From: Squatina squatina
Lineage: Eukaryota
Length of the DNA stretch: 39,551 bases
Assembly: GCA_031763465.1 (NCBI GenBank)
Contig: JARFOE010000013.1
Location: 13,741,850 to 13,781,400 of the forward strand
Reading direction: 5' to 3'
A program made the position numbers and the translations under genes. This document shows positions 4,791 through 8,642 of this stretch, piece after piece; within the stretch, counting starts at the first letter, position 1, and each line of letters starts with the position of its first letter. The notes below the pieces were generated by a model. It did not search any database and was not told the DNA's origin. It saw only the letters and a list, made by a program, of their open reading frames with translations.

Positions 4791-5489
4791 CTGAAGACAA
4801 GGGGGCCAGCCATTGCCAAAAAATAGAAAGGAAATTCTGGCTGAATAAAAAAATAAATGAATTTAAGAGATCTGTTGATAAAATCTCGTCGACACNNNNN
4901 NNNNNCTGAAACAACACGACTCTTTAAAGTATGAGTGAATTTCCGACTTAAACTTCCAACTGGACATAATGCGTTGTTCTTTGAGGCCACTTTTAGTTAG
5001 TGGACTGAACTTTACATTTTAAAAAACTTACGTGTCTGTTTCATCCCATGCGATACACGACTGATTTGTAGTGCCCTGTTAAAGAAAATGAACACTTTTT
5101 TTAAAATACAGATGATTCTACCCAAGATGTATATTGAAATTTAAACAATAAATCTCGCACAGGCCTAAATTCCTTTGTCAGTCACTAATTCAGTCCCTTC
5201 TCAATGCAGACTACATAGGGTAAGTCTTGCAAGGCTCCACTCTGGGGGCAAATGCCTTACTCGACAGGAATGCAAATGGGACAATTGGAGGCAGAGGTCG
5301 GTCAGCGTGATCAGATATTCCCATCACTCACGTTAATCTCCAAGAAATTAGGAGCTCCCAGATCAGGTGCACTGACCTCAGCACCAAATAGTCTGGGTGG
5401 ATCTCCTGCCAACAAAGACACTCTCAAAGCTTGGAAGGATCTAAAAAACCTGGGGTTGCAAATACATAATTCCCTGAAAGTGTGACTGT

Positions 5490-5696
5490 GGTGGATATTT
5501 CTGGATGTGGTTTTCGGGTGGGTTGATACGACTGAGTGGCTTGCTCGGTCATTTCAGAGACCATGTTGGTGTGGGACTGGCGTCACATATAGGCCAGACC
5601 AGGTAAGGAGGGCAGATTTCCTCTCCCTGAAGGAACCAGTTGGGTTTTTACGACAATCCGATATCTTCATGGTCACTTGTATTGATATCTGCTTTT
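5490..5696 (-). mobile_element. SINE-like repeat fragment (same family as 6898-7165 and 28892-29134)
   Basis: Shares GTCACATATAGGCCAGACCAGGTAAG...GGCAG..TT..TCCCT.AAGG...GTTGGGTTT with the other copies in the window. Confidence 0.65.
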
Positions 5697-5861
5697 NNNN
5701 NNNNNNNNNNNNNNNNNNNNNNNNNNNNNNNNNNNNNNNNNNNNNNNNNNNNNNNNNNNNNNNNNNNNNNNNNNNNNNNNNNNNNNNNNNNNNNNNGGCA
5801 CAGTGAGAGGGGAAATGCGGGAGAAATTGTAAGTAACTTTCACAAAACAAGTGACCTCAGG

Positions 5862-6074
5862 CAGGGTGACCAGATATTTAAAACTAAAAACAGGGACAAA
5901 ACTTACCTTCCAGCCTGCACAAGCGGAGTCAGGTCTCTGCCGGGACACTTTCCGTTCTCGCTTGCTGGAAACCGGGATATTTGAGCAATTTTAAGGTAAG
6001 TGTCGGGACACCGGGACATTTACTAAAAAAAAAACGGGACTGTCCTGGCAAAACCAGGACGTCTGGTCACCCTA
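5862..6074. mobile_element. hAT-superfamily MITE (213 bp) with perfect 8-bp TSD
   Basis: TIRs cAGGGTGACCAGA ... TCTGGTCACCCTa, flanked by ACCTCAGG at 5854-5861 and 6075-6082. Several internal (C)GGGACA subterminal motifs. Confidence 0.9.
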
Positions 6075-6351
6075 ACCTCAGGCATAAAATAACGTCCTCA
6101 AACTTTTGGGTTTACATTCTCGTTGGCTCTATCCTTGGATGAGTGGCCCTCAACAGTTTGAATACTCAAGTGCCCTGCTAAATACTCGTTGCGTATCTCC
6201 TTGCCAATTATACCAACACAAGTTATTTAAAGAAACATCGGCATTTAAGAGTGTGGCCCATTGGAGCTGGATCTCATTGCTGATCTGAGCAACCCTTGAA
6301 GTCCAGCAGGTGAAAGGGCATCGAGCCTGCCAAGATAGCCCGGGGACCCGA

Positions 6352-6528
6352 TCAATCCATTTCATTCAGAAACAGCATCATGATGCTTGTTGCTGCTCTG
6401 GTCTGGTTCATGGGCAGCTCCACCCATTGAGGGAATGTCGAAAGCTTGAAGATGAGATTGCCCCAGGTGTTGGTAGCTAGATTAACTAAGATGATTCCCA
6501 GGATGTTCATTGGTAGTCCAGCCTTCAT
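6352..6528 (-). CDS. SLC13-family (Na+/di-/tricarboxylate or sulfate cotransporter) terminal coding exon, 58 aa: MKAGLPMNILGIILVNLATNTWGNLIFKLSTFPQWVELPMNQTRAATSIMMLFLNEMD*
   Basis: Hand-translated; below the ORF-track cutoff. Fits the SLC13 C-terminal pattern KxGxxMNIxGxxxxxLAxNTWGxxIFxLxxFPxW plus an N-glycosylation sequon (NQT). Preceded by branch-point-like ACTAAC and the acceptor ctttctgtcaccAG (6530-6529) in phase 0, where SLC13 genes start their last exon. The paralogue (A2/A3/A5-like) cannot be assigned. Confidence 0.85.
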   Translation of the reverse strand: MKAGLPMNILGIILVNLATNTWGNLIFKLSTFPQWVELPMNQTRAATSIMMLFLNEMD

Positions 6529-6757
6529 CTGGTGACAGAAAGCCAGCGTTAGTTTCTATCTAGAGGATAGGGTTGCAAAATGTACAGAGCTCACGTCGGA
6601 AATTCCAGTGGCTCTGCCTACGGTTCCCCACACGCCTGAACTTCTGTTACACTTCCAGTGAAGGCCCGCTGAATGTGTGGATTTGTAAAATTATTGCCTG
6701 GATTTTATTTTAATCAAAATCTTTTTTTCTTTTTCTGATTACCGAGGTTTGGGACAT

Positions 6758-6897
6758 CAGAAAGAAAGAAAGACTTGCATTTATATATCAGCTTTCACGA
6801 CCACCGGACGTCTCAAAGCGCTTTACAGCCAATGAAGTACTTTTGAAGTATAGCCACTGTTGTAATGTAGGAAAAGCGACAATCAATTTGCGCACTT
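6758..6897 (-). mobile_element. SINE 3' part with L2-derived tail (SacSINE1/DeuSINE-like)
   Basis: GAAAGACTTGCATTTATAT...CTTTACAGCCAATGAAGTACTTTTGAAGT; same motif as 30566-30857. Confidence 0.7.
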
Positions 6898-7165
6898 CAG
6901 AAGGCAATTAAGAGTCAACCAAATTGTTGTGGGACTGGTGTCACGTGTAGACCAGACTAGGTAAGAACGGCAGGTTTGCTTCCTTAAAGGGCATTAGTGA
7001 ATCCGTTGGGTTTGCAATCCAGCAACTTAAATGGTCACTTTTACTGACCAGCTTTTTACTTCTAGATTTAAAGGAAAAACTGAATTAAAATTCACAAACT
7101 GCAATGTTGGGATTCCAGGCCCCCGGGCCTATGAGTCCGGTAACAAAACTGCTACACTGCCGTAC
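6898..7165 (-). mobile_element. SINE-like repeat (family of 5490-5696 and 28892-29134)
   Basis: GGCAATTAAGAGTCAACCA...GTCACGTGTAGACCAGACTAGGTAAG matches the other copies. Confidence 0.65.
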
Positions 7166-7886
7166 CTGTTTGCCTTTACAGAAACACTCCCTACATGCCT
7201 TGATATCAATAACAATACAACACCTAGCTCCCGGGGGTAACAAAACAGAAAAAAATAGCAACAACTGAAGAATGGAAATTAAAAAATGAGTCAAAAAGCT
7301 TTCCCCTTTAAGAGCTCCTCCATGCACGACATTACTGTTAATTCTCATGCAGATAGATGAGCAGAATTCATAACGTGATCATACACTAAACTAATGTGGG
7401 CATTGCATTGGGGATATTGACATGAATTAGAGTACAGTTAATATTTAAACGAAGCACTCGCATACTAAATGGTTGTCCAGAAGATTTCACGGTGTTGCAA
7501 TAATCTAGTTAAAGGGATCGCCATGAGACTTAATTGGTTATTGTTTTTTTGAAAGCGCAAGAAACAACACTGTACAGGAATTAATGAAACACATTCTGTT
7601 TTATTGCCCTGGCTATTGCTGTTTCTACAGTTTCCTTGGCAAGACCAAAATAACTTGTAAACATTTCTCCACAGAACACGCCGCAGATGTCTGCTCAAGC
7701 TCCTCATAATTAACCAAGGGCTGTTTTTCAAGAATTGTTTCACTGATGAAATAAGATTTTAATTTTCACATCAGCACAGTTATTTTCAATTATGAATAAA
7801 ATGTGTACTTAGACAGTTGCAAATAACCTAATCCTTAAGTAAAACCATCCTGTTGCACTGTACATAATTTGAACACATTGACTTAC

Positions 7887-7989
7887 GTTATATAGATGAG
7901 AAAATTCAATTTCCAAAGGGCTGGATAAAGATTTTGGAGAAGGCTTCACAATAACAGAGATTATCTTGGAATTCAGCACTGTGGCATTC
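7887..7989 (-). CDS. ADGRB1: ADGRB1 GAIN-domain exon ((R)[34 protein letters not shown])
   Basis: 103-nt exon with acceptor ttcaatttcAG (7991-7990) and phase-0 donor AAC|GTAAGT (7886-7885). Matches BAI1 NTTVLNSKVISVTVKP...PLEIEFAHMYN. Confidence 0.94.
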
Positions 7990-8642
7990 CTGAAATTGAA
8001 TCAAAAGACAAGCAATTTGTTAATGATTTAAAATACTCTGTACATTATGAGTTGTTTGAAGTCAAAACATAAAATAACTGGGTCATACTACTGTGGTTGT
8101 ATTATTGACGGCTTCTGGGTCAGTTGCTGACTTAAATTAATTAGGTTAGTTTTGCTGGTTACCCATCATGAGCAGGGCAGAGAACCTTACTGTGTCATTG
8201 TGGCTTTCACTGACTGTGCTACAATAGGTTATTTTCTTAATATCTTAGGCAGTCGAGGATGACTTGTTTCCACTCTGGAGTTGTGGGTTCAGAGGTGACT
8301 AAATAGTCNNNNNNNNNNNNNNNNNNNNNNNNNNNNNNNNNNNNNNNNNNNNNNNNNNNNNNNNNNNNNNNNNNNNNNNNNNNNNNNNNNNNNNNNNNNN
8401 NNNNNNNNAGGGTTGAGCACTTAAAAAAAAAACTATAGTAAAGCTGAATAGAAAGCAATATGGTGCACTGGAAATCTGCACCAGGTGAGGTCTGTCTGGG
8501 ATTGCTTTATTGGCTGATATCCCCATTATGGTAAGAGACAATAGTGCTGGGGAGCAGAGGCATGAAGTGGAAAGCTGAAATCAATTTGATGCAATATATC
8601 TCAAGGACATTTTAGAAATAAAATTAATAAATCTCGGCACAC

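Follow-up and report, generated by a model that had tools for sequence, protein, structure and literature searches.

A terminal exon of a shark SLC13A3-like gene assembled within an intron of ADGRB1 in Squatina squatina: a probable mis-join at a SINE

Introduction

In the genome assembly of Squatina squatina (GCA_031763465.1), an intact last exon of an SLC13 transporter gene is placed within an intron of the adhesion GPCR gene ADGRB1. The question raised by this locus is whether the exon occupies that intron in the animal or only in the assembly. The window analysed is the whole stretch of 39,551 nucleotides (contig JARFOE010000013.1, positions 13,741,850 to 13,781,400 of the forward strand), and coordinates given below are counted from its first letter. 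An earlier sequence-only reading of the window had offered three explanations, namely an SLC13 gene interleaved with ADGRB1 on the same strand, an orphan exon moved at the DNA level, or a mis-join through the SINEs at 6758-7165. The last of these fits best, and the surprising part of the arrangement, which is the location of the exon, is probably not real.

Structure of the exon and its place within ADGRB1

The SLC13 exon is encoded on the minus strand at 6352-6528 and consists of 58 codons (6528-6355) followed by a TGA stop codon at 6354-6352. The open frame in which it lies, measured from stop to stop, spans 6555-6355 and corresponds to 67 amino acids. The exon encodes the final transmembrane helix, the motifs NTWG and FPxW, and one N-glycosylation sequon (NQT). 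Its acceptor AG is at 6530-6529 in phase 0, with a branch-like CTAAC motif 21 nt upstream, which confirms the earlier description of a stop-free minus-strand frame of 58 codons that starts at an acceptor. Also confirmed is that the exon shares the gap-free contig 5797-8308 with the ADGRB1 exon at 7887-7989. This ADGRB1 exon, which is on the same strand and lies 1.36 kb upstream of the SLC13 exon, encodes part of the GAIN domain (aa 822-856 of Heterodontus ADGRB1, to which it is 97% identical) and ends in a phase-0 donor. The next ADGRB1 exon, from aa 857 onward, is at 5032-5075 on the minus strand of the neighbouring contig 4906-5696, and the SLC13 exon is thereby placed between the two.

ADGRB1 exons are collinear and on the same strand from 18729 down to approximately 15 kb to the left of the window. 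That the host is shark ADGRB1, as the sequence-only reading had held, is borne out by one GAIN exon which is 85-91% identical to shark and ray proteins named ADGRB1. A fourth ADGRB paralogue located near SLC13A3 was considered as the host and rejected, given this identity and the single copy found. Within 240 kb, 764 of the 1577 ADGRB1 residues were recovered, and many exons are absent from the scaffold. In the exon for aa 624-689, the window has one base at 10303-10301 where Heterodontus has two codons; this frame-shifting deletion of 5 nt, in an ADGRB1 that is otherwise 91-100% conserved, is either an assembly error or a real allele. Between the SLC13 exon at 6352-6528 and the ADGRB1 exon at 7887-7989 no other SLC13 exon was found, as had been stated earlier, and none was found in the 239.6 kb around the exon (about 100 kb on either side), 92.7 kb (39%) of which is N.

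Assignment of the exon to an SLC13A3-like paralogue

Among solved structures, the best phmmer match of the exon was human NaDC3/SLC13A3 (E 7.5e-9), followed by SLC13A5 (3.4e-7), SLC13A2 (4.4e-6) and SLC13A1 (0.0026). With the Heptranchias SLC13A3-like protein as query, tblastn covered all 58 residues at an E value of 1e-17. Judged from these scores the SLC13 match is not due to chance, and the proposed identity as an SLC13 last exon holds, with phmmer and tblastn giving the matches but a Pfam scan of the exon peptide alone returning no family. A word-index protein search with the peptide gave no match, and the ESM Atlas gave weak unnamed matches only, the best at 0.80. A search of 50% representatives gave 93 matches, all at 58% identity or less, and yielded full-length SLC13A3 proteins for use as queries.

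Another exon of the genome, used as query, retrieved both canonical SLC13A3 and a divergent SLC13A3-like paralogue from sharks. The window exon is 69% identical to the SLC13A3-like proteins of Heterodontus and Heptranchias over 55-58 aa, tail included, and equals its Heptranchias counterpart in length, whereas its identity to canonical shark SLC13A3 is 43-50%. In a tree of 19 last-exon peptides the window exon clusters with five SLC13A3-like rows (90/93, below the starred threshold), and the exon L003 (G000:C306547:1240-1405) clusters with canonical SLC13A3 (95/90). These sequence comparisons identify the window exon as the last exon, intact, of the SLC13A3-like paralogue of sharks. Its assignment to canonical SLC13A3 was rejected; that gene has its own last exon, L003, in the genome. 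In L003 itself, the conserved Trp of PxW is replaced by Cys. Relatives are referred to here as organisms A, B and C. The phase-0 acceptor of the window exon sits at the conserved exon boundary and the stop region is conserved as well; acceptor and branch region align in organisms B and C up to 6557, and the residues private to the window exon are Leu6Pro, Ile/Leu19Thr and Ala36Val.

The shark SLC13A3-like paralogue (P0216, P0217, P0225, P0312 and P0336) evolves fast, with 67-75% identity between distant species. The gene itself is already known, in that RefSeq annotates it as 'like'. A literature search found no published work on this paralogue or on an SLC13A3/ADGRB1 locus. According to one report, a transcript annotated slc13a3, with paralogues not separated, reaches a high abundance in the kidney of stingrays, at TPM 304-412 in seawater (PMC9396271).

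Selection on the exon

The exon is 55-69% identical to five orthologues, which are 47-71% identical among themselves when the Hemiscyllium-Chiloscyllium pair at 92% is left out. The ratio dN/dS, a measure that the sequence-only reading had proposed, is 0.18 over codons 1-36 against one relative, organism B (Fisher p 3e-4). The synonymous differences number 11.5 over 24.2 sites and the non-synonymous ones 10.5 over 83.8 sites, on the basis of 22 listed of the 29 differences in 6392-6557. On the branch leading to the window exon, 5 synonymous and 3 non-synonymous changes are found in codons 1-22 (p 0.017), polarised by hand using organisms A and B together with annotated proteins. These results suggest that the exon is under purifying selection and is not detectably decaying, with the caveat that a very recent copy would not yet display relaxed selection. 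One of the 3 non-synonymous changes is the Leu-to-Pro at codon 6, within the helix. Neither AATAAA nor ATTAAA occurs between the stop codon and the contig end at 5797. A shift towards AT at third positions, as a sign of a move to AT-rich DNA, was also considered and rejected, the GC3 of the exon being 0.60 and that of the gene's other exons 0.40-0.72.

Copy number, remaining exons and synteny

Four protein searches and one DNA search of the assembly found no second SLC13A3-like last exon, and the penultimate exon was likewise not found in the assembly. Four further exons of the gene, all with open frames (aa 121-176, 198-261, 261-304 and 333-367; 70-77% identity to Heterodontus), are on unplaced contigs of 0.7-3 kb (C417714, C793861, C973436 and C304563), none of them placed on C13, the scaffold of the window. 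With the window exon included, the five exons cover 256 of 595 residues (43%) and the other 57% is unassembled. With less than half of the gene assembled, the lack of a parent copy carries little weight.

SLC13A3-like and ADGRB1 are on records of different length in all five sharks with both proteins retrieved (Heterodontus, Scyliorhinus canicula, Chiloscyllium plagiosum, C. punctatum and Rhincodon), the pairs of record lengths being 103.5 versus 209.0, 211.7 versus 191.9, 64.5 versus 138.1, 75.6 versus 146.3 and 57.8 versus 121.4 Mb for SLC13A3-like and ADGRB1, respectively. The Rhincodon protein is a 364-aa model named SLC13A3 that was put in the paralogue by 75% identity. The two genes are likely on different chromosomes in sharks, as read from record length with one assembly per species assumed. 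In S. canicula, SLC13A3-like and canonical SLC13A3 are on one record and have neighbouring accession numbers, which suggests a tandem pair, and the shark SLC13A3-like gene is likely in tandem with SLC13A3.

Another scaffold, C222, carries two SLC13 loci that presumably correspond to SLC13A1-like and SLC13A4-like paralogues, located approximately 450 kb apart. The SLC13A1-like exon (G000:C222:3176630-3177444; L017/L018) has about 12 residues fewer than the SLC13A3 queries, and the exon after it reads LLVSNPPN instead of the usual MLPVxxPPN. From these differences, the locus is possibly a decaying SLC13A1.

The junction between the two DNAs

Only 229 nt of the gene's own intron precede the exon. 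This stretch (6529-6757, minus strand), which contains the CTAAC motif and the acceptor, is the 3' end of the last intron of the SLC13A3-like gene and is collinear with the exon in organisms A and C, where the exon start and pieces of the intron (6620-6711 and 6672-6711) occur on single contigs. The exon contig of organism A continues into the SINE up to 6814. The exon's own intron thus travelled with it, which excludes a retrocopy, as the retained intron had been taken to argue; a processed retrocopy was rejected on this ground. The 3' flank of the exon (5797-6351, minus strand) is homologous in organisms B and C, with 6152-6351 on the exon's contig. Within the flank, a small element at 5862-6074 (strand unassigned) has terminal inverted repeats and is presumably a hAT-like MITE. 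It is poorly covered by contigs of the relatives, spans 5854-6082 with its perfect 8-bp flanking duplications, and is probably a lineage-specific insertion.

On the other side, the 5' part of the ADGRB1 intron (7166-7886, minus strand; GC 0.36) and the ADGRB1 exon are collinear in organisms A and C, whose contigs link that exon to the intron down to 7075 and 7206. By these alignments, the DNA from 5797 to 6814 is shown to be SLC13A3-like and that above 7165 to be ADGRB1, and the limits of homology on both sides place the switch within 6758-7165.

This interval holds two SINEs, confirmed as repeats in keeping with the sequence-only reading. SINE2 (6758-6895, minus strand) is a 5'-truncated copy of a very high-copy element and is far more abundant than SINE1 (6893-7165, minus strand), a 3'-truncated copy of a second SINE family that abuts SINE2 via a 3-bp GTG overlap. 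Shark SINEs with L2-type tails are described in an earlier study (PMC5499810). The neighbouring contig 4906-5696 starts in the middle of a SINE1 copy (5520-5696), in the same orientation and about level with window position 7057. The SINE1-SINE2 junction was present in 0 of 39 other copies scored (of 1,697 candidates), and neither the junction nor the SLC13-side 25-mer occurs anywhere else in the assembly.

The longest run of SINE2 lacking a private change, in a comparison of 15 copies, is 6814-6849, the candidate point of mis-join or recombination. This core of 36 bp has 398 exact matches in the assembly, its own copy included. Exact sharing with SINE2 reaches 49 bp in 1 of 29 sampled copies, and the longest stretch, 55 bp, is shared with contig C987083 (C987083:466-520), which, as a candidate reciprocal chimera, matched neither exon nor flank. 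On neither side of the junction was an overlapping leftover contig end found. A test for a mosaic SINE using subfamily markers gave 2/8 versus approximately 24/100, the latter being the first 100 of 2,499 and counted by eye. The GC content is 0.46 on the SLC13 side and 0.36-0.37 in ADGRB1 introns, and the step falls across the SINEs; other SLC13A3-like exon contigs have values of 0.44-0.50, and about 9% of 115 nearby contigs reach 0.46.

The two contigs of organism A end at 6814 and, as judged from record length, near 6855, which one shared SINE copy fits as well as two. No contig bridging 6758-7165 is listed for organisms A, B or C, and since such contigs break in SINEs this is uninformative. 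A mis-join inside SINE1 is less likely than one in SINE2, given that there is no exact end overlap with contig 4906-5696 and that the longest exact run with other SINE1 copies is 26 bp. The assembly comprises 1,152,659 contigs; in the 240 kb around the exon their median length is 974 bp.

Origin of the arrangement

The place of the exon in the ADGRB1 intron is, with a probability of about 0.65, the product of an assembly mis-join within SINE2. The assembler, or a chimeric library molecule, would have passed from the SINE copy in the ADGRB1 intron to that in the SLC13A3-like intron, crossing at the 36-55 bp shared by the two, and the scaffolder would then have positioned the whole contig by means of the half that belongs to ADGRB1. 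The animal itself would carry the exon on a different chromosome, beside canonical SLC13A3, where it would be joined by splicing to the rest of the gene's exons. A mis-join appears to be the simplest reading because the exon is selected and single-copy and because its intron breaks off after 229 nt, at a repeat found identically at hundreds of loci. Other points in its favour are the SLC13A3-like identity of the exon, the other exons on unplaced contigs, the different records in 5/5 sharks, the lack of another SLC13 exon in 240 kb, the 398 exact matches to the core and the drop in GC from 0.46 to 0.36, as well as the state of the assembly, which has 1.15 million contigs (local median about 1 kb) and in which another ADGRB1 exon is frameshifted by 5 nt. 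Against a mis-join, an identity of 36-55 bp is shorter than a short read and should be resolved by ordinary reads, the words on either flank occur once or rarely, no leftover contig end with an overlap was found and the subfamily markers gave no clear sign of a mosaic.

The points on decay, copy number, synteny, intron length, the SINE core and GC fit a recent, real duplication equally well. It is possible, but rather doubtful, that SINE2-SINE2 recombination or template switching placed a copy of 1 kb or more from the 3' end of the SLC13A3-like gene in the ADGRB1 intron, with a near-identical parent that is collapsed or missing. Such an event would give the same sequence picture as a mis-join, it is favoured by the unique flanks of the core and the shortness of the shared stretch, and with 57% of the gene unassembled its parent may be missing. 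No second breakpoint lies inside the contig, however, as the block continues until the contig stops at 5797; a parent-side contig end with an overlap to the SINE was looked for and not found, and mis-joins are judged to be commoner in an assembly so fragmented.

That the exon is an old orphan, a duplicate which entered the ADGRB1 intron before the lineage of organism A diverged and which is now a pseudo-exon, is improbable. Organism A has a SINE2 tail beside the SLC13 intron and a SINE1 head beside the ADGRB1 intron, with contig ends that fit the same SINE pair, and the sequence of organism C diverges beyond 6711; the private proline in the helix and the lack of a poly(A) signal before the contig end would also suit a pseudo-exon. 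These points are countered by the synonymous excess on the window branch (p 0.017), an identity equal to that of functional orthologues, the failure to find a diverged parent copy, the persistence of the GC step and a threefold difference in depth between the two contigs of organism A (2.9 versus 9.4, a noisy figure). An orphan exon moved at the DNA level, as one of the three options offered earlier, is thus disfavoured in its old form by purifying selection and the single copy, and is left with the recent duplication described above.

It is very improbable that the join is real and that ADGRB1 transcripts can end alternatively in the SLC13 exon. The donor of the ADGRB1 exon (7887) and the acceptor of the SLC13 exon (6528) share phase 0, and a splice between them would be in-frame, giving an ADGRB1 ectodomain cut before the GPS and anchored by the SLC13 helix. 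Equally improbable, as part of the same reading, is that such a product would be a non-signalling decoy made by SINE-mediated exon shuffling; an end of this type was found in 0 of 25 chondrichthyan ADGRB1 proteins. The least probable of the readings, and the one of the three original options that is contradicted, is a functional SLC13A3-like gene that shares the strand of ADGRB1 and is interleaved with it, its upstream exons lying in introns further up ADGRB1. In its favour, the exon is intact and under selection, and the N that makes up 39% of the 240 kb may conceal exons. Against it, the genes are on different records in 5/5 sharks, a search of the 240 kb yielded no other SLC13 exon, not one of the four exons recovered elsewhere is placed on C13 and a transcript would need to skip several ADGRB1 exons.

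If the exon was placed by a mis-join, the locus serves only as a warning that a gap-free contig in this assembly can still unite two chromosomes at a SINE, and findings of a foreign exon in an intron in this assembly need read support. Should the join prove real, it would add a new instance of exon shuffling through a SINE, one in which a frame-compatible terminal exon was put into an adhesion GPCR.

Comparison with known systems

The elasmobranch SLC13A3-like proteins, also named Na(+)/dicarboxylate cotransporter 3-like (XP_067904635 of Heterodontus, XP_067856403 of Heptranchias and XP_038659530 of Scyliorhinus canicula) have the same exon start after a KDM motif, the same helix, NTWG and FPxW, and a homologous tail, with a length in Heptranchias equal to that of the window exon and identities of 55-69% to it. 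The differences are the three residues private to the window exon and the location, as the window exon is assembled 1.36 kb behind an ADGRB1 exon whereas the gene in those species is on another record. Canonical SLC13A3 (NaDC3) has the same exon boundary and gave the best match among solved structures, with the shark form 43-50% identical to the window exon. Compared with a nested or interleaved arrangement, none of the gene's other exons was found within the span of the host gene (240 kb, 39% N).

Alu-Alu rearrangements are an analogue for SINE-mediated segmental duplication. Such duplications likewise have a breakpoint in a SINE, a retained intron and no poly(A) tail, but here neither a second breakpoint nor a parent copy was found. 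In repeat-induced chimeric contigs of short-read assemblies, two unrelated single-copy sequences are likewise joined within a high-copy repeat through an identical core, which here measures only 36-55 bp, and one gene is likewise severed from its other exons.
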